Positions 6,298 through 32,000 of a DNA stretch of 32,000 bases are shown in pieces. The stretch lies in assembly GCF_000012545.1 (NCBI RefSeq), contig NC_007681.1, positions 600,001 to 632,000 on the forward strand, written 5' to 3'. The notes beneath the pieces were generated by a model. That model had not been told where the DNA came from. It saw only the letters and a list, made by a program, of their open reading frames with translations, and did not search any database. The first letter of the stretch is position 1. Every line of letters begins with the position of its first letter. The position numbers and the translations under genes are program-made. The DNA comes from Methanosphaera stadtmanae DSM 3091 (GTDB taxonomy: Archaea; Methanobacteriota; Methanobacteria; Methanobacteriales; Methanobacteriaceae).

Positions 6298-6771
6298 TTA
6301 TTTTTTATTTTGATTGAGGGAATTAATTGTAATATCATATAATATTTCTTTAATTTCATTTTTTTGTTTTTTATTAAGAAAACCACATACTTCCTCTTCC
6401 CATAGAGAATCAAAGTTTTCAATTAATGATGCTATTTTTTCCCCTTTTTCTGTAATGTATACGAAGTTTTGTCGTCTGTTGTTTTTATCAATTTTACGTG
6501 TTATAATATTTTTATCTTCCAAGTTACGAACAGTTCTAGCTATTGTACCCTCTGTCATGTGGAAAGCTTCTGCAAGTTCATGTTGTGTTTTTTTACCTTC
6601 TTTAAATAATTTCATTATTGTAGGATATTCACCTACTGATACATCATAGGGTTTTAGTGTATTTTTTAGATAGATTGTGTGTTGTCTGTATATTGTTGAG
6701 AGTATGAAACTTATGGGAAAATTATGGGCATTTTCTTTTGTAAATTTTTTTGGCATTGTCATTGGTATCAT
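6298..6771 (-). CDS. MarR-family winged-helix transcriptional regulator
   Basis: 157 aa with a wHTH region TQHELAEAFHMTEGTIARTVRNLEDKNIITRKIDKNNRRQNFVYITEKG. The first ATG abuts AAAAGG, so the real start may be ATG at 6762 or 6756. Confidence 0.8.
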   Translation of the reverse strand: MIPMTMPKKFTKENAHNFPISFILSTIYRQHTIYLKNTLKPYDVSVGEYPTIMKLFKEGKKTQHELAEAFHMTEGTIARTVRNLEDKNIITRKIDKNNRRQNFVYITEKGEKIASLIENFDSLWEEEVCGFLNKKQKNEIKEILYDITINSLNQNKK

Positions 6772-6813
6772 CCTTTTTTAATTATTTTTCAAAAAGAAAT
6801 ATTAGTATAAATA

Positions 6814-8205
6814 TTATTCTTTATATTTTATTAATCTTTTTAAATAATATTTAAATACTATAAATCCTATTATGGAACCTATTGCAACTCCTAGAACAAG
6901 TCCATAGTATAGTCCATACTGGGCTAGTCCAAATACAAATGTAAATATGAGTGTAAGTAGGAGTACTAATATTAATTCTCTTATTACTGTTAATATAAGT
7001 GATATTGTTCCTTTTCCCATTCCTTGGAATACACATGCTGAGCATAAACCTAGTGGAATTCCAAGTAGGAATAATGCAAGTATTCTTAATGTTTCTGTTA
7101 TTATAACTCCTAGATGTGCACTTGATGTTGAATAACTAAATAATAGTGCTATTTGTGGTGCAAATATTTCTATTAAAATAACTATTGCTATGGCTATTAT
7201 CATGGATAATTTTATTGAATAGTAACATGTTGTTTTAAGTTTTTCATAGTCTCTTGCTCCATATGCTACTCCTCCAACTGTTATTGCTGCTGTTCCTATA
7301 CCTACACTTGTCATCATACCCACTTGTATAACACTCCATGCTGCAGTGTATCCTGCAATTATTGTTGTTGTAGCAACAATGGATAATATTAAGTTTCCTA
7401 TTATTGTTAAAACGGATATTATAAGTTGTTCTACACTAGCTGGTAGTGCTACTGCAATTAATTCCTTTGTTATTTTTGCATTGTAATGGAATTCTTTTAT
7501 TTTAAATGATAAGTATGTGTCCTTTTTAATAAACATCCAGTATAACATTAAACATGTTGCTACTGTTGCTGAGAGTATTGTTGCAAGTGCGGCTCCTTCA
7601 ACTCCAAGATTTAATGTGTATATGAATATTGGATCTATTATCATATTTAGTACACCAGTAAATATAAGGGCTATTGTGGCACGTTTTACATCACCCTCTG
7701 CTCTTAATTCACTTGATAATATTCCATTGAATATTAGTGTAAATGATCCTAGTATTATGATTGCTGCATATGGTTTTGCATATGTTATTACTGATGAGGC
7801 ACCCATTACTATGAGTAGATTTTCAAGACATGGTAGTAGTATTAATGGTATAAGTATTGATAGTATAAGTCCTATTATTACTCCATGTAGTGCACTATTA
7901 TCTGCACTATCTTTTTTATTTGCTCCTATATATCGTGAAATGAGGGAGTTTGCTCCTGCTCCAAATCCATTTGCTATTCCACCTATTATAATAAATAATG
8001 GTGTTACAAATCCTATTGCTGCAAGTGGATCTGATCCTAGTCCTGCTACCCATACTCTGTCTACCATGTTATATACCATGTTGAGTACAAGTGTTATTAT
8101 CATTGGCCATGCTATTGCCTTTATTGCAATTTTAGGATCGCCTCTTATTAGATCTACTTTATCGTTTTTTTCATTATTATTTTTCATGTTTTTATTTGTG
8201 TTCAT
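6814..8205 (-). CDS. MATE-family multidrug/toxic-compound efflux transporter
   Basis: 463 aa with about 12 hydrophobic segments. The N-terminus (AIKAIAWPMIITLVLNMVYNMVDRVWVAGLG) is typical of MatE. A strong SD (AGGAGG) lies 5 nt upstream of the ATG. Confidence 0.85.
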   Translation of the reverse strand: MNTNKNMKNNNEKNDKVDLIRGDPKIAIKAIAWPMIITLVLNMVYNMVDRVWVAGLGSDPLAAIGFVTPLFIIIGGIANGFGAGANSLISRYIGANKKDSADNSALHGVIIGLILSILIPLILLPCLENLLIVMGASSVITYAKPYAAIIILGSFTLIFNGILSSELRAEGDVKRATIALIFTGVLNMIIDPIFIYTLNLGVEGAALATILSATVATCLMLYWMFIKKDTYLSFKIKEFHYNAKITKELIAVALPASVEQLIISVLTIIGNLILSIVATTTIIAGYTAAWSVIQVGMMTSVGIGTAAITVGGVAYGARDYEKLKTTCYYSIKLSMIIAIAIVILIEIFAPQIALLFSYSTSSAHLGVIITETLRILALFLLGIPLGLCSACVFQGMGKGTISLILTVIRELILVLLLTLIFTFVFGLAQYGLYYGLVLGVAIGSIIGFIVFKYYLKRLIKYKE

Positions 8206-9499: not shown

Positions 9500-10645
9500 A
9501 TGAAAATACTAATTACAACATGTGGGGTAGGTATTGGTCATTCATCAAGGGATGTTGCACTAGCAAAACTACTTGAGAAAAAAGGTCATAAAATCTACTT
9601 TGCAAGCTATGGGACAGGACTACATTACCTGCAAAAAAACAACTACAAACCATATAATCTACCACCCATGAACTTCCACCATGAAGATGGAGTACTTGAT
9701 ATAGAAAAATCAGTGAAAAAATCTAAAGATATACCATTTACCTTCATAAAAAGTATGTATAGAGAATCAAGAATAATAAAAAAAATAAAACCAGATTTAA
9801 TAATAACTGATTCACTTTACTCTCCTCCAATAACAGCTAAATTTCTAAATGTTCCATGCTATATAATAACAAACGACCTAACATTTGGATTTTCACAAAA
9901 TACAAATATGACTTCAATAAAATACTTTGAAAAAAGTATAAGAAAATTCATAATAGAAATATCCAAGTCAACAAATAAAATATTAATACCTGATATACCT
10001 GAATCCATAACAATACCCAAGGAACTTGAAGATAAAACAGAATTTATAGGACCTCTACTACATAAAAACCCACAGGAAATAGATACTAAGGAAAATCTAA
10101 GAAGAAAATATGGCCTAGATAATAATGAAAAAATTCTTCTAGTAACAATTGGTGGAAGTGATTTTGGAAAAGAATTAATAACAAACATATGTGCAGTATC
10201 TGAAGAAATAGAAGTAGATAAAATTTTCATATTCACAGGTCTTGAATTAAATCCAGATATCTTTAAATTACCATCTTCTAATAAAAAGGTAATAATAAAA
10301 CAATTCACATACAATCTAATTGAATGGATGAAACTCTCAGATTTAACAATAACACTAGCAGGTCATACAACATCAATGGAATTAATATCAATAAAAAAAC
10401 CAAACATAATGATACCAATAAAAAATCATATAGAACAAGAGAGAAACCTTAAGAAAATGAGACAATACAACATAACAAAAACAATAGAAACACAACAAAA
10501 ACAACAATTACTAGAACTTATTAACAACACAATAAATAATCTAGATAAAATAGAAATAAATCCAAAATTATATGATACATTTCTAAAATACAATGGAAGA
10601 GAAAATGCCCTGAAAGTAATAGAAAATCTAAATAATATTAAATAA
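9500..10645 (+). CDS. GT-B fold glycosyltransferase, MurG/GT28-like (MJ1255-type family)
   Basis: 381 aa. It has the N-terminal G-rich motif MKILITTCGVGIGHSSRDVALAKLLEKKGH and a C-terminal MurG-like segment LAGHTTSMELISIKKPNIMIPIKNHIEQERN. Confidence 0.7.
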   Translation: MKILITTCGVGIGHSSRDVALAKLLEKKGHKIYFASYGTGLHYLQKNNYKPYNLPPMNFHHEDGVLDIEKSVKKSKDIPFTFIKSMYRESRIIKKIKPDLIITDSLYSPPITAKFLNVPCYIITNDLTFGFSQNTNMTSIKYFEKSIRKFIIEISKSTNKILIPDIPESITIPKELEDKTEFIGPLLHKNPQEIDTKENLRRKYGLDNNEKILLVTIGGSDFGKELITNICAVSEEIEVDKIFIFTGLELNPDIFKLPSSNKKVIIKQFTYNLIEWMKLSDLTITLAGHTTSMELISIKKPNIMIPIKNHIEQERNLKKMRQYNITKTIETQQKQQLLELINNTINNLDKIEINPKLYDTFLKYNGRENALKVIENLNNIK

Positions 10646-23082: not shown

Positions 23083-24486
23083 ATGAAAAATTATTTTAAT
23101 ATAGAAGAGATAGAAAAAATACTTACTAACAATGAACTTCTATCAGGAAACTTTGGATTAGAAAAGGAAGGTCTTAGAGTAACAAAAGATGGAAATCTAT
23201 CCTTAACACCACATCCAGAAGTCTTTGGAGATAAACTTAAAAATCCATATATAACAACAGATTTCTCAGAAAGTCAGATAGAAATAGTAACACCATCATT
23301 CAATACATTAAATGAAGTATATCAATTTCTGTCATTTATAAGTGATTTAGTAAACATAAATATTCCAGATAATGAATATATATGGAATCAATCACTACCC
23401 TGTATCATACCAGATGACTCTAAAATACCCATAGCCAAATATTCAAAAGAAGGTAAGGATGCATATGAATATAGAAAAAATCTATCAAAAAAATATGGAA
23501 GAAAACTACAGTTAATATCAGGAATTCATTATAACTTCTCATTTGATGAAAAAGTCATAGAAAAATTATATAAAAATATATCCCATGATCTTTCATATAA
23601 AAACTTTAAAAATCAGCTCTATCTTAAAATAGTAAGAAACTACCTTCGATATAAATGGCTAATAATATATCTAACAGGAACATCTATTGCATGTCATGAA
23701 ACATTTATAGAAAAATGTTACAATCTAATGAATAAAAAAGATAACTATGATAGTTATTATGGTACTGAGGCTGTATCATATAGAAATGCATCATGTGGAT
23801 ATAAAAATAAAACACCCCTCTATCCTAGATACACATCAGTAGATGAGTTTATAAGAGATGTTAAAGATTTTATTAATAAAGGTTTATTATCTGAATCAAA
23901 GGAATTATACACCCAGATACGTTTAAAACCACATGATAGAAATAACTTTTTAAAATCATTAAAAGAGGATGGAATTCAATATATTGAAATAAGGACTATT
24001 GATATAAATCCATTTGATAAATGTGGAATATCTATGGAGGATATGGAATTTATACACATATTCCTACTGTACTTGTTACTTAAAGAAGAATCCACTTATG
24101 ATAAATGGCAGGAAGAAAGTTTAATAAACGAGGAAAACACTGCAGAAAATGCATTTAATACTAATTTAAAACTATTAAATGATGGGTGTGAAGTATCACT
24201 AAAGAATTGGGCTTTTAATATAATTAATGAAATTAAACAAATAAACACTAGACTAGATTTAGGTAAGGATGAAATTATACATACTATGCAAGAGAGAATA
24301 GAAAATCCTAAAAAAACACATGCATATAAATTAAGAAATATTATTAAAAACAAGGGATATATTAACAGTCAACTATCAATTGCCAAAAACAATAAACAAA
24401 CAAGTGAAGATATTTTTAACATGGAACATATTATGAAAAATGAGAAACTCCTCAAATATTATAATGATGCCATAGAAAAAGTGTAA
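23083..24486 (+). CDS. gshA: Glutamate--cysteine ligase (gamma-glutamylcysteine synthetase), stand-alone bacterial type
   Basis: 467 aa. FGLEKEGLRVTKDGNLSLTPHPEVFGDKLKNPYITTDFSESQIEIVTP and LISGIHYNFS match the GshA / GshF N-terminal domain. No ATP-grasp extension is present. Confidence 0.85.
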   Translation: MKNYFNIEEIEKILTNNELLSGNFGLEKEGLRVTKDGNLSLTPHPEVFGDKLKNPYITTDFSESQIEIVTPSFNTLNEVYQFLSFISDLVNINIPDNEYIWNQSLPCIIPDDSKIPIAKYSKEGKDAYEYRKNLSKKYGRKLQLISGIHYNFSFDEKVIEKLYKNISHDLSYKNFKNQLYLKIVRNYLRYKWLIIYLTGTSIACHETFIEKCYNLMNKKDNYDSYYGTEAVSYRNASCGYKNKTPLYPRYTSVDEFIRDVKDFINKGLLSESKELYTQIRLKPHDRNNFLKSLKEDGIQYIEIRTIDINPFDKCGISMEDMEFIHIFLLYLLLKEESTYDKWQEESLINEENTAENAFNTNLKLLNDGCEVSLKNWAFNIINEIKQINTRLDLGKDEIIHTMQERIENPKKTHAYKLRNIIKNKGYINSQLSIAKNNKQTSEDIFNMEHIMKNEKLLKYYNDAIEKV

Positions 24487-24567: not shown

Positions 24568-25050
24568 TTAAATTAAATCTATTTCATCCCATTTAACATC
24601 ATTATCTTCTGTTAAGTATTCTTCATCACAATGAACCTTTTCTACTTTTCCAATAAATAATTCATGACTTCCAGGTTGTATTGAATCAACAACACTACAT
24701 TCAATATTTACTGGACAATCTGTAAGTATTGGTGCATCAATTATATCTGCATCAGTTGTGTTAATGGATGCTAATTTATCTTCATCACGTCCAGATACAG
24801 TTCCAAGGTACATGTATTTCTCACTAAATTCCTTTGTAGGTATATTTACAACGAATTTTCCAGTATCCTTTACCATATCATATGAAAATCTTGAAGGTAT
24901 AATTCCAATCATTACCATTACAGGATCGATACTTGCTACACTTGCAACTCCAACTGCTAATGCATTATCATGTCCATCTTTACGGCATGATACAATAGTG
25001 TTTGGCATGGGTTTTATTCTTGCTTTTGTTTTATCTGCTTCTTTTTTCAT
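24568..25050 (-). CDS. Flavin reductase-like (FMN-binding split-barrel) protein, paralogue A
   Basis: 160 aa. The pattern PMPNTIVSC...GHDNALAVG...PSRFSYDMVKDTGKFVVNIP...DKL...PILTDCPVNIEC...GSHELFIGKV is typical of flavin-reductase-like domains. GGAGA lies 7 nt upstream of the ATG. Confidence 0.75.
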   Translation of the reverse strand: MKKEADKTKARIKPMPNTIVSCRKDGHDNALAVGVASVASIDPVMVMIGIIPSRFSYDMVKDTGKFVVNIPTKEFSEKYMYLGTVSGRDEDKLASINTTDADIIDAPILTDCPVNIECSVVDSIQPGSHELFIGKVEKVHCDEEYLTEDNDVKWDEIDLI

Positions 25051-25066
25051 TTGATTATCTCCAATA

Positions 25067-25549
25067 TTATAATAAATCTATTTTTTCCCAATTAACAGAT
25101 TTCTCTTTTGTTAGATATTTATCATCACAATGAACCTTCTCAACCTTTCCAATGAATAAATCATGACTTCCAGGACTATACACATCTATAAGACTACATT
25201 CATAGTTTATAGGACAATCTGTAAGTATTGGTGCATTAATTACATCTGCATCAGTTGTATTGATTGATGTTAATTTATCTTCATCATATCCTGAAACACT
25301 TCCCAAGTAGTCAAATTCTCTTTTAAAGTCTTTTGTTGGTAGATTTACAACGAAGTTTTTAGTTTCTTTAATAATCTCATGTGAATATCTTGAAGGTCTT
25401 ATTGCTACCATTATCATAAGAGGATCTGTTGCAATATTTGAAATAAATCCTATTGCCAATGCATTATCATGTCCATCTTTACTTCTACATGATATAATTG
25501 CATTAGGCATTGGTCTTATCCAATTTGAATCATCTACATCAATTTTCAT
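25067..25549 (-). CDS. Flavin reductase-like (FMN-binding split-barrel) protein, paralogue B
   Basis: 160 aa, collinear with paralogue A and roughly 60% identical by eye. GGAGA lies 7 nt upstream. It stops 16 nt before the start of paralogue A. Confidence 0.75.
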   Translation of the reverse strand: MKIDVDDSNWIRPMPNAIISCRSKDGHDNALAIGFISNIATDPLMIMVAIRPSRYSHEIIKETKNFVVNLPTKDFKREFDYLGSVSGYDEDKLTSINTTDADVINAPILTDCPINYECSLIDVYSPGSHDLFIGKVEKVHCDDKYLTKEKSVNWEKIDLL

Positions 25550-25800: not shown

Positions 25801-26577
25801 ATGAAAGTGGTCATACTTGCTGGAGGCTTTGGAACTAGAATTTCTGAAGAATCCTATTTAAAACCTAAACCAATGATTGAAATAGGGGAAAAACCAATTT
25901 TATGGCATATAATGAAAATATATTCCTACTATGGATATAATGAATTTATAATATGTCTTGGATATAAATCCCACATGATTAAAGAATTTTTCGCAGATTA
26001 CTATCTTCACACATCTGATGTAACATTTGACTTATCAAAAAATGAAATGGAAGTACATAACAATTATTCAGAACCATGGAAAGTTACTTTAGTAGATACA
26101 GGTCTTAACACTATGACTGGTGGACGTATTAAAAGAATTAAAGATTATTTGCCAGATGATGAACCATTCATGTTAACATATGGTGATGGGGTGTCTGATG
26201 TTAATTTAAATAAATTATACAATTTCCATAAGAAAAATAAAAAACTTGCAACAATAACAGCAGTGAATCTTGCAGGACGATTTGGTGTACTAAAAATAGA
26301 TGAAACTGAAACAATAAATAAATTCTCAGAAAAAACAAAAGAAGATGGTGGATGGATTAATGGTGGATTCATGATACTTGAAAAAGAAGCTATTGATTAT
26401 ATTACAGATGATACAACAGTTTTTGAAAAGGATCCACTTGAAAACTTAGCAACAAATGGTCAGTTAATGGCATATAAGCATCATGGATTCTGGAAATGTA
26501 TGGATACAAAAAGAGATCATGATGCTTTAGAAAAATTATGGCAAGAAGATAATGCACCATGGTATTTATGGAAATAA
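25801..26577 (+). CDS. rfbF: Glucose-1-phosphate cytidylyltransferase
   Basis: 258 aa. MKVVILAGGFGTRISEESYLKPKPMIEIGEKPILWHIMKIYSYYGYNEFIICLGYK and GGWINGGFMILE match RfbF/DdhA. Confidence 0.9.
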   Translation: MKVVILAGGFGTRISEESYLKPKPMIEIGEKPILWHIMKIYSYYGYNEFIICLGYKSHMIKEFFADYYLHTSDVTFDLSKNEMEVHNNYSEPWKVTLVDTGLNTMTGGRIKRIKDYLPDDEPFMLTYGDGVSDVNLNKLYNFHKKNKKLATITAVNLAGRFGVLKIDETETINKFSEKTKEDGGWINGGFMILEKEAIDYITDDTTVFEKDPLENLATNGQLMAYKHHGFWKCMDTKRDHDALEKLWQEDNAPWYLWK

Positions 26578-26596
26578 AGTATATAGTTGATAAATT

Positions 26597-27664
26597 ATGG
26601 ATAAATTCTTTAAAAATAAAAATATTTTACTAACAGGACATACAGGCTTTAAGGGTTCATGGTTAACAAGTATATTAGTTAAATATGGTGCTAATGTAAC
26701 AGGATACTCATTAAATCCACCATCTAATCCTAATTTATACGAATTATTAGATTTAGATAATGATATAAATTCAGTTATAGGTGATATAAGGGATTTAAAC
26801 ATGTTAAAAACCATATTTTATGATACTAATCCTTCCATTGTAATTCATATGGCAGCACAACCAATTGTAAGAGAAAGCTATAAAAATCCATTATATACCT
26901 ACCAAACAAATGTAATGGGTACTGTAAATATATGTGAATGTATTAGAGAATCAAATGTTAAATCATTTCTAAATGTAACAACAGATAAAGTATATGAAAA
27001 TACTGGAAAAAATGAGGGATACTCAGAATATGAAAAACTTGATGGATATGATCCATATTCAAATAGTAAATCATGCTCTGAAATAATAACACATTCTTAT
27101 AATAATTCATTCTTTAAAGAAAAAAACATCAATACTTCAACAGCAAGAGCAGGAAATGTTATTGGTGGTGGAGACTTTGCAAAGGATAGAATAGTACCAG
27201 ACTGTGTAAGAGCATGTATTAATAATGAAGATATTATTATAAGAAATCCAAATTCAATTAGACCTTATCAACATGTTTTAGAACCATTGTACATGTACTT
27301 AACAATAATAAAAAAACAATATGAAAATAGTGAATATGCAGGTTACTACAATGTTGGACCAGATGATGAAGACTGTATTACAACAAAAACTTTAGTGGAT
27401 ATATTTTGTAGCCACTACAATAAAATCACAAACAACAACATAAAATGGATAAATAAGAGTGATAATGGTCCACATGAGGCAACCTTCTTAAAACTTAACA
27501 ACCAGAAAATAAAGGATGTCTTTGGTTGGAGGCCAACATGGAATATTAAAGAAGCTATTGAAAAAACAGTTGAATGGACAAATGCCTATATTAACAATGA
27601 AGATATGAAAGAATACACCAGTAATCAAATAGATGAATATCAAAGGAGGAATCATTATATTTAA
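26597..27664 (+). CDS. rfbG: CDP-glucose 4,6-dehydratase
   Basis: 355 aa. It has the SDR Rossmann motif LLTGHTGFKGSWL and the catalytic YxxxK (YSNSKSC). The length is typical of RfbG/DdhB. Confidence 0.9.
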   Translation: MDKFFKNKNILLTGHTGFKGSWLTSILVKYGANVTGYSLNPPSNPNLYELLDLDNDINSVIGDIRDLNMLKTIFYDTNPSIVIHMAAQPIVRESYKNPLYTYQTNVMGTVNICECIRESNVKSFLNVTTDKVYENTGKNEGYSEYEKLDGYDPYSNSKSCSEIITHSYNNSFFKEKNINTSTARAGNVIGGGDFAKDRIVPDCVRACINNEDIIIRNPNSIRPYQHVLEPLYMYLTIIKKQYENSEYAGYYNVGPDDEDCITTKTLVDIFCSHYNKITNNNIKWINKSDNGPHEATFLKLNNQKIKDVFGWRPTWNIKEAIEKTVEWTNAYINNEDMKEYTSNQIDEYQRRNHYI

Positions 27665-28985
27665 AAATAAGACAGAGAAAGAAGCAAGAGAAGAAATATT
27701 ACAGTTAGTAAGGGAATATGCTGATAAATATCATAAACCTGTAGAGTATCATAGGGGAGATAAGATTTCATATGCTTCTAGAGTATATGACTGTGAAGAA
27801 ATGGTGAATTTAGTGGATAGCTCCCTTGAATTCTGGTTAACATCAGGAAGATATACTGATTCTTTTGAAAAAAAATTAGCTAAATATCTTAATATCAAGT
27901 ATTGTTCATTTGTAAATTCAGGATCATCTGCTAATTTACTAGCTTTTATGGCATTAACATCCCCCCTTCTTGAAGATAGACAAATACTTCCTGGAGATGA
28001 AGTAATAACAGTAGCAGCAGGATTTCCAACAACTGTTGCTCCAATAATACAGTATGGTGCAGTACCAGTATTTATTGATGTTACAATTCCACAGTATAAT
28101 ATAGATGTTAATCAACTAGAAGATGCCTCATCTGATAAAACAAAAGCTTTAATAATAGCCCATACTCTTGGTAATCCATTTAATCTAGAATACATAACTA
28201 AGTTTTGTAAAGAACATGATTTATGGTTAATAGAAGATAATTGTGATGCATTGGGAAGTAAATATGTAATTGATAATGAAGAAAAATTCACTGGAACAAT
28301 AGGTGATATAGGTACAAGTAGTTTTTATCCACCACATCATATGACAACAGGGGAAGGTGGAGCAGTATATACTAATAATCCTCTACTTAACAGAATCATA
28401 CGTTCACTACGTGATTGGGGTAGAGATTGTCAGTGTAGTTCTGGAGAAGATAATTTTTGTGGTAATAGATTTACACAAAAATATGGTAAATTACCTGTAG
28501 GCTATGATCATAAATATGTTTACTCCCATTTTGGATATAATTTAAAGGCAACAGATATGCAAGCAGCAGTAGGTTGTGCACAGATAGATAAATTCCCATC
28601 TTTTGTTGAAAAAAGAAAGAAAAACTTCAACAGAATAAAAGATGGACTACAGGGTCTTGAAGATAAATTAATACTACCTGAAGCAGAACCAAATAGTGAT
28701 CCTTCATGGTTTGGTTTTTTAATTACAACAAAAGAAAATAATAGAAATAGAATAGTACAGTATTTAGAAGATAATAATATTCAAACAAGAATGTTATTTG
28801 CAGGAAATATTATTAAACATCCATGTTTTGATCAAATAAGAGATAGTAATAAGTACAGAGTAGTTGGAGACTTAGAAAATACTGATAAAATTATGAATAA
28901 TACATTTTGGATAGGTGTATATCCTGGTATGACTAATGAAAAAATTGATTATATGATTGAAAAAATAAGAGAAGCTGTTGAATAA
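27633..28985 (+). CDS. rfbH: CDP-6-deoxy-L-threo-D-glycero-4-hexulose-3-dehydrase (E1; RfbH/DdhC), PMP/[2Fe-2S]-type member of the DegT family
   Basis: 450 aa with a DegT-family fold. The usual PLP-lysine position reads SFYPPHHMTTGEGG (His235/His236, nt 28335-28340). A Cys motif C204-X61-C266-X-C268-X7-C276 is present (nt 28428-28460 for the last three). ATG 27633 overlaps rfbG by 32 nt. An internal SD-like AAAGGAGGA (27642-27650) is followed only by in-frame ATT/ATA, so the start is uncertain. Confidence 0.85.
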   Translation: MNIKGGIIIFKNKTEKEAREEILQLVREYADKYHKPVEYHRGDKISYASRVYDCEEMVNLVDSSLEFWLTSGRYTDSFEKKLAKYLNIKYCSFVNSGSSANLLAFMALTSPLLEDRQILPGDEVITVAAGFPTTVAPIIQYGAVPVFIDVTIPQYNIDVNQLEDASSDKTKALIIAHTLGNPFNLEYITKFCKEHDLWLIEDNCDALGSKYVIDNEEKFTGTIGDIGTSSFYPPHHMTTGEGGAVYTNNPLLNRIIRSLRDWGRDCQCSSGEDNFCGNRFTQKYGKLPVGYDHKYVYSHFGYNLKATDMQAAVGCAQIDKFPSFVEKRKKNFNRIKDGLQGLEDKLILPEAEPNSDPSWFGFLITTKENNRNRIVQYLEDNNIQTRMLFAGNIIKHPCFDQIRDSNKYRVVGDLENTDKIMNNTFWIGVYPGMTNEKIDYMIEKIREAVE

Positions 28986-29011
28986 TAAATTCATAAATTT
29001 AAGTGATTGTC

Positions 29012-29794
29012 ATGAACACTACAGAAGAAAAAATGGTTGAAATACTAAAAATACTAAAAAAAGACTATGGTGTAATAGCAGTAAAATCAGAGTTTGAAAC
29101 AGAAGGCTCTAGAAAAAATGAATTAACAAAATTACGTGATATTATTTCTAAAGCAGGACTCAAAATGTACATTAAAATTGGTGGATGTGAAGCTGTAAGA
29201 GATTTGGATGATTGTAAAATATTGGGTGCAGATGGTATAATGGCCCCAATGATTGAAACACCATTTGCAGCATCAAAATTTAGAAAAGCATTTAATAAAG
29301 TATTTCCATCTAAAGATGATGGAGTAATTGATAGAATAATAAATCTTGAAACAATAACAGCATATGAAAATATGGATAATATTTTTAGGGAAAATAGTGA
29401 TTTTCTAGATACTGTTGTTATAGGAAGAAGTGATTTTTCAAGTTCATGTTCCATTCCAAAGAGTGAAATTAATGGTCAGAAAATGTTTGAATATTGTAAA
29501 ACAATAATTGATAAATCAAATGATTATGGATTTAACTCAGCATTTGGTGGAACATTATCAGTAAATAGTATTGATTTTATAAAGAAATTAGAGGATTCAA
29601 TTGATAGAATAGAAACAAGAAAAATAGTATTTGATATTGAAAAACTTGATGGTAATTATGCTAATGCAATAGATACAGCAATAACATTTGAATATCTTTA
29701 TCTTAAAAATAAATTAAATTATTATCAATCAGTAGTAGATGAAGATAAGGCAAGATGTGACGAACTTAAAAATAGGGTAAATGTTGAATTATAG
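29012..29794 (+). CDS. Aldolase-like TIM-barrel protein (HpcH/HpaI / PEP-utilising-type; function unknown)
   Basis: This is a clear ORF; the track starts at GTG 29003 and the first ATG is 29012, preceded by AAGTGA. KIGGCEAVRDLDDCKILGADGIMAPMIETPFAASKF and TVVIGRSDFSSSCSI resemble the HpcH/HpaI aldolase/citrate-lyase-beta pattern. The family call is by eye, so functional confidence is low. Confidence 0.5.
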   Translation: MNTTEEKMVEILKILKKDYGVIAVKSEFETEGSRKNELTKLRDIISKAGLKMYIKIGGCEAVRDLDDCKILGADGIMAPMIETPFAASKFRKAFNKVFPSKDDGVIDRIINLETITAYENMDNIFRENSDFLDTVVIGRSDFSSSCSIPKSEINGQKMFEYCKTIIDKSNDYGFNSAFGGTLSVNSIDFIKKLEDSIDRIETRKIVFDIEKLDGNYANAIDTAITFEYLYLKNKLNYYQSVVDEDKARCDELKNRVNVEL

Positions 29795-29804
29795 ACGTGA
29801 TTAT

Positions 29805-30827
29805 ATGAGTAAAGTTATTACCTTTGGAGAAATAATGTTAAGATTATCACCACCAGGATATAATAGATTTATACAAGCAAATAGTTTTGATATTAATTAT
29901 GGTGGAAGTGAGGCAAATGTATCATTTTCTCTAGCAAATTATAATATTGAAACTGAATTTGTTACAAAACTTCCAGATAATGAAATGGGAAGAGCCACAT
30001 TTAATAAGCTTAGACAATATGGTGTAGGTATAAACCATATAGTTTATGGTGGAAGACGTTTAGGTATTTATTATATGGAAAAAGGTGCAAGTCAGAGACC
30101 TTCAAAGGTAATTTATGATAGGGCTTTTTCTTCAATATCTGAGGCAGAATCTTGTGATTTTGATTGGGAAACCATATTTGAAGATGCTTCATGGTTTCAT
30201 TTTTCAGGTATAACTCCTGCATTATCTGATAACTTGGCAGAAATTACATTAGAGGCATGTATTGTTGCAAAAAGTATGGGTATTACAATTAGTTGTGACT
30301 TAAATTATAGATCTAAATTATGGACACAAGAAAAAGCAAACAAAGTAATGACAAAACTCATTAAATATGTTGATGTTTGTATTGCAAATGAAGAAGATAT
30401 AGAAAAGGTATTTGATATTAAAGCTTCTGATTCTGATGTGGATAGGGGAATATTAAATTATGAATCATATAAGGAAGTTGCAAGAGAGATTCATGAAAGA
30501 TTTGGATGTAAATATATTGCATGTACTCTTAGAACATCCATATCAGCAAGTGATAATAAATGGACATCATTAATATACTATGGGAATAAATGTTATCAAT
30601 CTAAGGAGTATTCTATTCATATAACAGATAGGGTTGGTGGAGGAGATAGTTTTGTTGCAGGACTTATATATGGATTTATGAAAAATATGAACATTGATAA
30701 AACTATGGAATTTGCAACAGCAGCAAGTTGTCTTAAACAAACAATAGAAGGGGACTTCAATTTAGTTACAGAGGAAGAAGTTAATTTACTTGCAAATGGT
30801 AATGCTTCTGGACGAGTTCAACGATAA
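29805..30827 (+). CDS. PfkB-family sugar kinase, 2-dehydro-3-deoxygluconokinase (KdgK)-like
   Basis: KVITFGEIMLRLSPPGYNRFIQANSFDINYGGSEANVSFSLANY is a close match to the Firmicute KdgK N-terminus. The PfkB signature DRVGGGDSFVAGLIYG is present. I placed the start at ATG 29805; the ORF-track start 29781 overlaps the upstream gene. Confidence 0.8.
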   Translation: MSKVITFGEIMLRLSPPGYNRFIQANSFDINYGGSEANVSFSLANYNIETEFVTKLPDNEMGRATFNKLRQYGVGINHIVYGGRRLGIYYMEKGASQRPSKVIYDRAFSSISEAESCDFDWETIFEDASWFHFSGITPALSDNLAEITLEACIVAKSMGITISCDLNYRSKLWTQEKANKVMTKLIKYVDVCIANEEDIEKVFDIKASDSDVDRGILNYESYKEVAREIHERFGCKYIACTLRTSISASDNKWTSLIYYGNKCYQSKEYSIHITDRVGGGDSFVAGLIYGFMKNMNIDKTMEFATAASCLKQTIEGDFNLVTEEEVNLLANGNASGRVQR

Positions 30828-30862
30828 TACATAAAAATAATTTAATTCAAGGAGACAATATA

Positions 30863-32000
30863 ATGAAAATAAGAGTAGCAGATTATATAGCAGAATTTTT
30901 AGCTGAAAACAACATAGATACATTATTTACAGTTGTAGGTGGAGGTGCAATGCATCTTAATGATGGATTTGGTCATAATGAAGATATTAAATGTATCTAT
31001 AATCATCATGAACAAGCATGTGCAATAGCAGCAGAAGGTTATTATAGAATGTCAAATAAACTACCTGCTGTGTGTGTAACAACAGGACCTGGGGGAACAA
31101 ATGCACTAACTGGAGTACTTGGAGCATATCTTGATTCAATACCAATGCTTGTAATATCAGGACAAGTAAAATATGAAATGACAGTAGATAGTACAGGGCT
31201 AGATCTTAGACAACTAGGGGATCAAGAATGGAATATTGTCTCAACAGTAGATTCAATGACAAAATATGCACATATGATAAAAAATCCTAATGAAATAAAA
31301 TATGTTCTTCAAAAAGCATTATATCTTGCTACTTCTGGAAGACCAGGACCATGTTGGATAGATGTTCCATTAGATATTCAGGGAGCTATTATTGATACTG
31401 ATGATTTAATAGAATTTAATGAAGATGAATTGGATATAGATTTAGGTGTTAAAGTAACAAAAGATACAATTGAAAATGTTATTTCCAAACTTAAATCTGC
31501 TAAAAGACCAGTTATTTATGCTGGTAGTGCTATTAGAACAAATAATGCACATGATGAATTTTTAAAACTTGTAAATAAATTACAAATACCTGTTGTAAAT
31601 GCATGGAATGCTACAGATTCACTTGAATATGATAATAAATTAACAGTAGGTTGTGGTGGATCATTTGGAGATAGACCAGCAAACTTCGCTGTACAAAATA
31701 GTGATTTAATACTATCCTTAGGTTGTAGATTAAGTACTAGACAAGTTTCATTTGCATATGATAAATGGGCATATGATGCATATAAGATAATGGTGGAAAT
31801 TGATAAGGCTGAAATAGAAAAACCAACAATTAATATAGATATGCCAATACAATCAGATATTGGTGATTTCCTAGAAATATTTAATAAGGTACTTGATGAA
31901 GAGTATATGGGCTATGAATTTAATTACAATCAATGGGTAGATAAATGTAATGAGTGGAAAAATAAGTATCCTGTATGTGATAAATTAAAATACCAACAAA
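30863..32000 (+). CDS. Thiamine-diphosphate-dependent enzyme of the acetolactate-synthase superfamily, YerE-like (5' partial; continues beyond window)
   Basis: This frame is not in the ORF track because no stop is reached. I translated it by hand from ATG 30863, with AAGGAGA 8 nt upstream. It reads MKIRVADYIAEFLAENNIDTLFTVVGGGAMHLNDGFGHNEDIKCIYNHHEQACAIAAEGYYRMSNKLPAVCVTTGPGGTNALTGVLGAYLDSIPMLVISGQ... and stays open to 32000. That covers the Pyr domain plus the middle domain (RPVIYAGSAIR). Confidence 0.8.
   Translation, partial: MKIRVADYIAEFLAENNIDTLFTVVGGGAMHLNDGFGHNEDIKCIYNHHEQACAIAAEGYYRMSNKLPAVCVTTGPGGTNALTGVLGAYLDSIPMLVISGQVKYEMTVDSTGLDLRQLGDQEWNIVSTVDSMTKYAHMIKNPNEIKYVLQKALYLATSGRPGPCWIDVPLDIQGAIIDTDDLIEFNEDELDIDLGVKVTKDTIENVISKLKSAKRPVIYAGSAIRTNNAHDEFLKLVNKLQIPVVNAWNATDSLEYDNKLTVGCGGSFGDRPANFAVQNSDLILSLGCRLSTRQVSFAYDKWAYDAYKIMVEIDKAEIEKPTINIDMPIQSDIGDFLEIFNKVLDEEYMGYEFNYNQWVDKCNEWKNKYPVCDKLKYQQ

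Follow-up and report, generated by a model that had tools for sequence, protein, structure and literature searches.

What would a methanogen make with a bacterial dideoxyhexose pathway that runs on into an aldolase, a sugar-acid kinase and a carboligase? The question is raised by six genes of Methanosphaera stadtmanae DSM 3091, found at the end of a 32,000-nucleotide (nt) stretch (the window, meaning the whole of the DNA analyzed). All lie on the + strand and are tightly packed, in the order RfbF, RfbG, RfbH(E1), an aldolase-like protein (ALD), a KdgK-type kinase (KIN) and a thiamine diphosphate (ThDP) enzyme. Our answer, to which we give a probability of roughly 60%, is that the operon makes and transfers a cytidine diphosphate (CDP)-activated 3,6-dideoxyhexose bearing a long 4-C side chain, following the published logic of acyl-branched sugars. 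An earlier reading of the DNA from its letters and open reading frames (ORFs; hereafter the sequence-only reading) had assigned these six co-directional, closely spaced genes, and the ORFs agree with their Pfam and NCBIfam matches:

25801-26577, + strand: rfbF, glucose-1-phosphate cytidylyltransferase, 258 amino acids (aa); TIGR02623 equivalog, 405 bits, cutoff 300
26597-27664, + strand: rfbG, CDP-glucose 4,6-dehydratase, 355 aa; TIGR02622 equivalog, 428 bits, cutoff 278
27633-28985, + strand: rfbH (E1), pyridoxamine phosphate/[2Fe-2S] CDP-6-deoxy-L-threo-D-glycero-4-hexulose 3-dehydrase, 450 aa; NF011936 equivalog, 729 bits, cutoff 423
29012 (ATG; alternative GTG at 29003)-29794, + strand: ALD, divergent HpcH/HpaI-like putative class II pyruvate aldolase, 260 aa; Pfam HpcH_HpaI
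29781-30827, + strand: KIN, KdgK-type 2-keto-3-deoxygluconate (KDG) kinase of the PfkB family, 348 aa (340 aa from a start at 29805); NF041633, 2afb
30863-32000, + strand: YerE-like ThDP-dependent carboligase, N-terminal 379 of 603 residues, the gene exiting the window; TPP_enzyme_N and TPP_enzyme_M

The intergenic gaps are, in gene order, 19, -32, 17-26, -14 and 35 nt, with the KIN start overlapping the ALD stop by 14 nt and AAGGAG preceding the ThDP start codon. The arrangement is not a matter of chance, because the same set in the same order recurs in three other Methanobacteriaceae genomes and in rumen Bacteroidales. Three Bacteroidales loci (L046, L052 and L058) read RfbF-RfbG-RfbH-ALD-KIN-ThDP followed by a short-chain dehydrogenase/reductase (SDR), and a Bilifractor locus (L044) reads ThDP-ALD-KIN-SDR. 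Beyond the window end, the operon was followed on L001, a metagenome contig that encodes an identical KIN. There the ThDP enzyme is complete at 603 aa with N, M and C domains, and the genes after it encode a 299-aa SDR, a family 2 glycosyltransferase (GT2), an RmlC-like protein, an FMN_red protein and a second GT2. The window most likely holds the front half of an operon of ~12 kb.

The acceptor sugar is the best-defined part of the route. RfbF homologs in related loci are 55-82% identical, and the RfbH protein corresponds exactly to ABC56932. The upstream-encoded RqcH and PheT, like RfbH, are identical to proteins of M. stadtmanae DSM 3091, and exact copies of ALD and KIN were likewise found. 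The RfbH translation carries SFYPPHHMTTGEGG, with a histidine at the position of the Schiff-base lysine of aminotransferases, and a C-x-C-x7-C motif, RDCQCSSGEDNFC (CQCSSGEDNFC); we take the His-for-Lys swap and the iron-sulfur cysteine motif to be hallmarks of E1. As judged from these gene identities, RfbF, RfbG and RfbH(E1) would together convert glucose-1-phosphate into CDP-4-keto-3,6-dideoxyglucose.

The identity of the ThDP enzyme decides whether this ketone is a branching point. The top NCBIfam matches are, by name, acetohydroxyacid synthase (AHAS) models and KdgK is normally paired with 2-keto-3-deoxy-6-phosphogluconate (KDPG) aldolase, which together would suit a housekeeping or catabolic reading, with an acetolactate synthase and a KDG-degrading (semi-phosphorylative Entner-Doudoroff-like) ALD-KIN pair lying near the rfb genes by chance. 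The scores argue otherwise. The full-length enzyme from L001 gives 381.7 bits to JanthE (8rph), 252 to 5ahk and 229 to the best AHAS, and it falls under all AHAS equivalog cutoffs (TIGR00118, 340.9 versus 538), with the PRK AHAS models also far under. In L001 the SDR comes next, with no ilvN or ilvC after the ThDP gene, and different phyla keep this gene block within their glycan clusters. M. stadtmanae grows by methanol reduction with H2 and is not known to use sugars, which also speaks against a catabolic pair. The IlvB/acetolactate synthase identity was rejected on the scores and on the following gene, and the housekeeping reading as a whole is effectively refuted. By its sequence scores the ThDP enzyme is YerE-like, not IlvB, as had been claimed from the letters.

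The entry 5ahk is labeled acetolactate synthase II in the Protein Data Bank (PDB) and is presumably PpYerE (reference list of PMC12247030). Together with 8rph, which is JanthE, a characterized YerE-like enzyme (PMC12188165), it provides the best PDB sequence matches of the window ThDP enzyme, and K567 and the three-domain architecture are common to all of them. Docking and mutagenesis identified Y297 and K567 as hot spots of the JanthE pocket (PMC12188165). The window enzyme differs at and beside these positions, with F297, A298 and S568 where JanthE has Y297, D298 and L568; positions 298 and 568 flank the two hot spots.

A YerE-like enzyme supplied by an aldolase has a published precedent. 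Steitz et al. 2022 (PMC9306805) proposed a common scheme for erwiniose, caryophyllose and gastriose. A gamma-hydroxy alpha-keto acid is formed by a pyruvate aldolase and joined to CDP-4-keto-3,6-dideoxyglucose by a YerE-like enzyme, after which a YerF-like reductase acts; the ThDP step was tested in vitro. According to the same paper, ErwE refuses pyruvate and accepts the aldolase products, the caryophyllose donor was proposed to be a (poly)hydroxylated alpha-keto acid, and in the caryophyllose cluster of M. marinum the gene MMAR_2331, of the 'aldolase/citrate lyase family', adjoins the ThDP gene MMAR_2332. Because this route places a pyruvate aldolase before the YerE-like ligation, the aldolase of the present operon is explained by a known scheme, and the statement of the sequence-only reading that no known pathway needs one does not hold.

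The correspondence extends to the whole gene set. As described there (PMC9306805), the clusters for acyl-branched sugars (M. marinum MMAR_2331-2333, P. atrosepticum ErwE/F/I/J and M. gastri MyGE/MygI/MygF) have in common with this operon the CDP-4-keto-3,6-dideoxyglucose genes, a pyruvate aldolase, a YerE-like ThDP enzyme, an NAD(P)H reductase and a glycosyltransferase. The NCBI name of ALD is the family name used there for MMAR_2331, a likeness by name; two papers on M. marinum are silent on the sequence and family of MMAR_2331. There are also differences. The main text of Steitz et al. (PMC9306805) names no kinase, whereas KIN is part of this operon. The published systems have bacterial hosts and branches of C4, C6 and C7, whereas here the host is an archaeon, the predicted donor is a phosphorylated C6 KDPG-like acid and the predicted branch is C5. 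The yersiniose A pathway of Y. pseudotuberculosis (DdhA-D, YerE and YerF) has the acceptor sugar route, the class of branching enzyme and the following reductase in common with the operon, but its YerE takes pyruvate and needs neither aldolase nor kinase, and its E3 gene (DdhD) has no counterpart here.

Thus, the earlier claim that the combination fits no known pathway lapses for the aldolase and stands for the kinase, the exact side chain and the archaeal host, which are the only parts outside the accessible literature. A 2025 review mentions an in-silico survey of more than 200 YerE-like clusters (Krug et al. 2024). What sets the present cluster apart is its archaeal host and the KdgK recruited into it, from which a KDPG-derived C5 branch, possibly phosphorylated, is predicted.

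ALD itself is highly divergent. It matches Pfam HpcH_HpaI (PF03328) marginally, at 26.7 bits against a cutoff of 25 and over residues 54-169 only, and no NCBIfam family matched. Its AlphaFold (AF2) model, with a predicted local distance difference test score (pLDDT) of 90.3, is a pyruvate-kinase-type TIM barrel whose Foldseek neighbors are HpcH/HpaI aldolases, malyl-CoA lyase, SbnG and the pyruvate kinase barrel (including 3qz6, 7nnk, 7et9 and 4b5w). Aligned as a family profile to YfaU (E=0.0014), iinaEt pairs with vqvES and GRvDLSAS with GPADLSAS, such that both metal ligands match; the residues concerned, E113 and D141, are invariant in the family. ALD therefore has the fold and the Glu/Asp metal ligands in common with the HpcH/HpaI/YfaU class II pyruvate aldolases, but its sequence similarity to them is very low, as the profile E-value and the Pfam score just over cutoff indicate. 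From sequence and model together, ALD is a putative metal-dependent pyruvate aldolase of the HpcH/pyruvate kinase-barrel superfamily.

The family is large. A search with ALD itself returned more than 655 relatives, one seeded with a distant actinobacterial ALD (L065) gave 5752 clusters at E<1e-10, and a genome scan placed relatives in at least 584 species genomes. Two members are unusual. The homolog P0027 of Methanosphaera sp. ISO3-F5, from a complete 2.5-Mb genome, is 186 aa long and 85% identical over 65% of the query, and is possibly a pseudogene or has a miscalled start. An Omnitrophota metagenome-assembled genome (L060, 9179-10777) has a tandem pair of ALD paralogs next to the ThDP gene, and these share 36% and 41% identity with ALD of the window.

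What ALD contributes can be judged from its neighbors. ORFs were called and clustered in 80 ALD loci from the genome scan, and ThDP neighborhoods were counted in 75. A ThDP homolog lies within about eight called ORFs of ALD, usually directly beside it, in 63 of the 75, and RfbF/G/H homologs are found in most ALD loci. In bacteria the ThDP stop and ALD start codons often overlap; in the window, KIN alone separates ALD from the ThDP gene. The ALD/ThDP pair is thus widespread in bacteria and the system is not specific to the archaeon. That ALD is an independent insertion was rejected, as it occurs with the ThDP gene in different phyla. In four Methanobacteriaceae loci and nine bacterial loci, KIN is the gene immediately after ALD. 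The sequence-only reading would have been refuted had the aldolase and kinase genes proved to be an independent insertion; ALD is not one, and neither is KIN within the Methanobacteriaceae, although across bacteria the kinase is one of several optional partners. The shared gene order that it suggested looking for in gut bacteria occurs in the three Bacteroidales loci.

The gene beside ALD varies. It may be an HAD protein (phosphoglycolate-phosphatase-like, or NagD-like in three loci), KIN, an AroB-like gene with an SDR, LuxE/LuxC, or nothing, and ALD clades follow the partner type in part. The AroB-like type is found in 22 loci, where a TIGR04425 'AroB-related sugar phosphate phospholyase' (434 bits, cutoff 400) and a FabG-like SDR stand beside ALD, for example:

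L020, 10805-12561: AroB-like gene and SDR
L061, L063, L064, L066 and L081, just 3' of ALD: AroB-like gene and SDR

By analogy with the published caryophyllose side chain, ALD in these loci would give a 7-phosphate like 3-deoxy-D-arabino-heptulosonate 7-phosphate, and phosphate elimination and reduction would then give 2-keto-3,7-dideoxyheptonate, a caryophyllose-type donor. In five loci from Lachnospiraceae and Oscillospiraceae (L017, L019, L020, L026 and L055), LuxE/LuxC-like acyl-activating/acyl-reducing genes accompany ALD and the ThDP enzyme. The ThDP pocket of this type differs (D/E293, H567 and R581), and the combination hints at fatty-aldehyde-derived, lipid-like branches.

ALD also occurs without a ThDP enzyme, with KIN in L027, L040, L041 and L047 and with HAD in L025, L029, L032 and L043 (around position 10000 of each locus). 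Its neighbors there are a class I/II aminotransferase, an ATP-grasp ligase and DegT-type sugar aminotransferases, which suggests that the same keto acid is transaminated and then ligated to an amino sugar. Given the partner swaps and these ThDP-less occurrences, the best reading is that ALD and its partner together form a module supplying a tailored 2-oxo acid, used as a ThDP donor or, once transaminated, as an acyl substituent. A wider proposal, which we advance tentatively, is that ALD is the hub of a donor-tailoring toolkit (KdgK, HAD, AroB-like plus SDR, LuxC/LuxE) that diversifies long-branched sugars across hundreds of bacterial species and also feeds an aminotransferase/ATP-grasp route to N-acylated amino sugars, with a C11 phosphate-ended sugar made in M. 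stadtmanae, rumen Methanobacteriaceae and Bacteroidales.

The same ThDP-less loci, in which ALD plus KIN or ALD plus HAD stand beside aminotransferase, ATP-grasp and DegT genes as a self-contained keto-acid module, could be taken to mean that the module is separate from branching in M. stadtmanae too. The ThDP enzyme would then use pyruvate to form a two-carbon branch of the yersiniose type, as MyGE and JanthE accept pyruvate in vitro, and ALD and KIN would make or consume a 2-keto-3-deoxy acid for another part of the glycan. Against this stand the proximity of the ALD and ThDP genes in 63 of 75 loci, where the stop codon of one often overlaps the start codon of the other, and the co-variation of ThDP pocket residues with the type of accessory gene. 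Moreover, the one enzyme tested with an aldolase partner, ErwE, refuses pyruvate (PMC9306805). We regard a separate module as unlikely.

The order of the two carbon-carbon bond-forming steps could also be reversed, with the ThDP enzyme adding acetyl from pyruvate, ALD extending the resulting methyl ketone on the CDP-sugar, and KIN phosphorylating the extended chain. Steitz et al. treat an aldolase acting after branching as chemically possible, and tested and rejected it for ErwE (PMC9306805). It would explain a kinase acting late. On the other side, the substrate of canonical KdgK, to which KIN is 63-64% identical, has a carboxylate, and ALD with KIN is also found among aminotransferase genes in loci that lack the ThDP enzyme, where the keto acid has to be free. 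An aldolase acting on the branched sugar is improbable on this evidence. Of the readings first offered for this locus, the best supported is the one in which aldolase and kinase provide a non-pyruvate acyl donor for a branched 3,6-dideoxyhexose.

The ThDP pocket bears on the nature of that donor. The enzymes of the archaeal and the Bacteroidales KIN-type clusters have A298, S568 and A581, in contrast to N298, L568 and P or K at 581 in most of the others; the two KIN-type groups are not sister clades. Their common A298/S568/A581 would give indirect support to a distinct donor in KIN-type clusters. A lysine or arginine specific to the KIN type, as a possible phosphate binder, was not found in the pocket, where the residues that distinguish this type (A298, S568 and A581) are smaller or polar ones.

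The kinase points to what the donor may be. On the kinase half of NF041633, a model of the KDPG-aldolase/kinase fusion, KIN scores 564 bits, and it reaches 393 bits against the T. maritima KDG kinase structure 2afb. Its nearest bacterial relatives, 62-66% identical, lie in hexuronate operons (GntR-UxaC-Eda-KdgK and IclR-Eda-KdgK-KduI-KduD), one of them as an Eda-KdgK fusion. In the kinase tree, KIN is 63-64% identical to canonical KdgK, 65-67% to its other Methanobacteriaceae orthologs and 52-58% to bacterial glycan-cluster kinases, and the latter form three groups interleaved with canonical KdgK. This interleaving suggests that ordinary KdgK was recruited to glycan clusters, probably more than once, in which case the desired activity would be KDG phosphorylation itself.

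The context of KIN is nonetheless not that of its catabolic relatives. The canonical KdgK-KdgA (Eda) module of hexuronate and pectin catabolism likewise joins such a kinase to an aldolase, but its aldolase is the class I Eda, whereas the partner of KIN is a class II-like HpcH/pyruvate kinase-barrel protein. In the window, KIN neighbors ALD, RfbH and the ThDP gene and is paired with no Eda/KdgA or hexuronate gene. The canonical module is catabolic; the KIN context, in a glycan operon with no hexuronate pathway genes in view, is biosynthetic.

Its specificity could have drifted, since PfkB kinases shift specificity readily, and KIN falls below the archaeal KDG-kinase equivalog cutoffs NF041332 and NF040938 (haloarchaeal and crenarchaeal; 254 versus 440 and 126 versus 400). 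KIN might then act on a sugar aldehyde or on a 2-keto-3-deoxy acid of C5 or C7 length, or the phosphate might be removed later, as HAD-type clusters show that many lineages want a dephosphorylated chain; branch length or phosphorylation would differ from our prediction. KIN is, however, as close to operon-proven KdgK as to its Methanobacteriaceae orthologs, and it matches the 2afb KDG kinase at the score given above. We give a branch that is not KDG-derived only a small chance of being right.

The pathway we propose for M. stadtmanae is as follows. ALD would condense pyruvate with a C3 aldehyde, either glyceraldehyde-3-phosphate (GAP) or glyceraldehyde, and the KdgK-type kinase would keep the product pool as the 6-phosphate, KDPG or its C4 epimer. 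Going by homology and gene context, the YerE-like ThDP enzyme would decarboxylate this alpha-keto acid and transfer a five-carbon acyl unit to the C4 ketone of the CDP-sugar. The adjacent SDR would reduce the side-chain ketone in the manner of YerF, and the GT2 enzymes, one of them of the polyprenyl-phosphate type, would transfer the sugar to a glycan of the cell envelope. We predict a C11 product, 3,6-dideoxy-4-C-(1,3,4-trihydroxy-5-(phospho)oxypentyl)hexose, whose C5 branch is intermediate in length between those of erwiniose (C4) and caryophyllose (C6).

Two routes to KDPG are possible. GAP and pyruvate may be joined directly, with KdgK salvaging dephosphorylated KDG, or glyceraldehyde and pyruvate may give KDG that is then phosphorylated. 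The near-identical ALDs found with KIN in L027 and with HAD in L032 favor a phosphorylated ALD product, whereas the lack of another KDG source in a methanogen favors the route through glyceraldehyde.

Several observations weigh against the proposed pathway. The invariant arginines of ALD (R34, R63, R139 and R203) include none aligned to the catalytic arginine of known enzymes (R70 in HpaI, R74 in YfaU). Orthology of ALD with MMAR_2331 is putative; no Mycobacterium appears among the 120 matches listed of the 5752 found with the L065 seed, the listed ones being close environmental relatives. A kinase in L027 and an HAD phosphatase in L032 fill the same slot beside near-identical ALDs, an alternation that lacks a clean explanation, so that ALD may act on either GAP or free glyceraldehyde. 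Neither free KDG nor glyceraldehyde has an evident source in a methanogen. L044, also of the KIN type, has only S568 of the three signature residues of the ThDP pocket. Neither such a sugar from M. stadtmanae nor any C5-branched 3,6-dideoxyhexose was found in the searchable literature, and the enzyme functions assigned here are predictions from genes alone.

A further difficulty concerns electrons for E1. No E3-type reductase (FNR-like with [2Fe-2S]; RfbI/DdhD/AscD) is present in the window or in L001. The genes that the sequence-only reading advised looking for past the window end are only partly there, with a YerF-like reductase (the SDR) and glycosyltransferases in L001 and the E3 missing from it. 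An unlinked or non-canonical reductase would have to replace E3. The only flavin proteins nearby are two Flavin_Reduct proteins (24568-25549, - strand) and one FMN_red protein (L001 6992-7564), and the Bacteroidales relatives have an FNR-like gene (c39) that lacks a ferredoxin domain. The Flavin_Reduct genes are tandem paralogs divergent from rfbF and could feed electrons to E1:

24568-25050, - strand: Flavin_Reduct protein, 160 aa
25067-25549, - strand: Flavin_Reduct protein, 160 aa

As a substitute for E3 the pair was rejected; it is not kept beside the cluster in the related archaeal loci L013-L015 and is probably unrelated.

The genes that follow the ThDP gene in L001 fit the last steps of the pathway. 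The 299-aa SDR, an Epimerase-family protein of the epimerase/dehydratase type, lies immediately 3' of the ThDP gene and by this position would be the YerF-like reductase. Two of the genes further along are:

L001 6351-6923: RmlC equivalog, 281 bits, cutoff 156
L001 7686-8390: GT2 resembling the polyprenyl-phosphate glycosyltransferases AglJ and PpgS

A possible role for the RmlC-like protein is 5- or 3,5-epimerization of the CDP-sugar, and genes like it are found again in L061, L063, L064, L066 and L086. Some clusters have a Methyltransf_23-type methyltransferase inserted between rfbF and rfbG or before the ThDP gene (L013, Methanobacteriaceae, about 6300-7500; L037, 6916-8094), which recalls the S-adenosylmethionine-dependent methyltransferase of the R. 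palustris cluster described by Steitz et al. (PMC9306805).

If the prediction is right, this would be the first YerE-type branched sugar in Archaea, a C11 sugar with a KDPG-derived five-carbon polyol branch at 4-C that ends in phosphate. M. stadtmanae, one of the two main methanogens of the human gut, stimulates the immune system to an unusual degree. Should its envelope carry a rare and possibly anionic deoxysugar with a long branch, that sugar would be a candidate for an antigen or a phage receptor and would mark gene transfer from bacteria of the gut into archaea. The donor range of ThDP carboligases, which are used for chiral tertiary alcohols, would also widen if a YerE-like enzyme took a phosphorylated C6 keto acid. 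More generally, an ALD family with swappable tailoring genes in at least 584 species yields testable predictions for many uncharacterized glycan clusters, one being that the AroB-like gene and SDR make the 7-deoxy donor of caryophyllose-type sugars.

Gut bacteria are the most likely source of the cluster, given the 50-75% identity of RfbF, RfbG, RfbH and the ThDP enzyme to homologs in Firmicutes. The genes upstream of the operon are archaeal housekeeping genes, for HAN nuclease, archaeal RqcH, TgtA and archaeal PheT. Base composition changes across window positions 26000-32000, where GC skew is +0.14 to +0.33, against roughly -0.2 to +0.2 upstream, and G+C rises slightly to 0.27-0.31, from about 0.24-0.28 over the 4 kb before it. 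Both shifts are compatible with a foreign origin or with a uniform coding strand. One more gene of bacterial type lies upstream:

23083-24486, + strand: 467-aa protein passing the GshAB model NF002688 (438.8 bits, cutoff 425), with only the ligase half covered

Such a bacterial-type gamma-glutamylcysteine ligase is unexpected in a methanogen.

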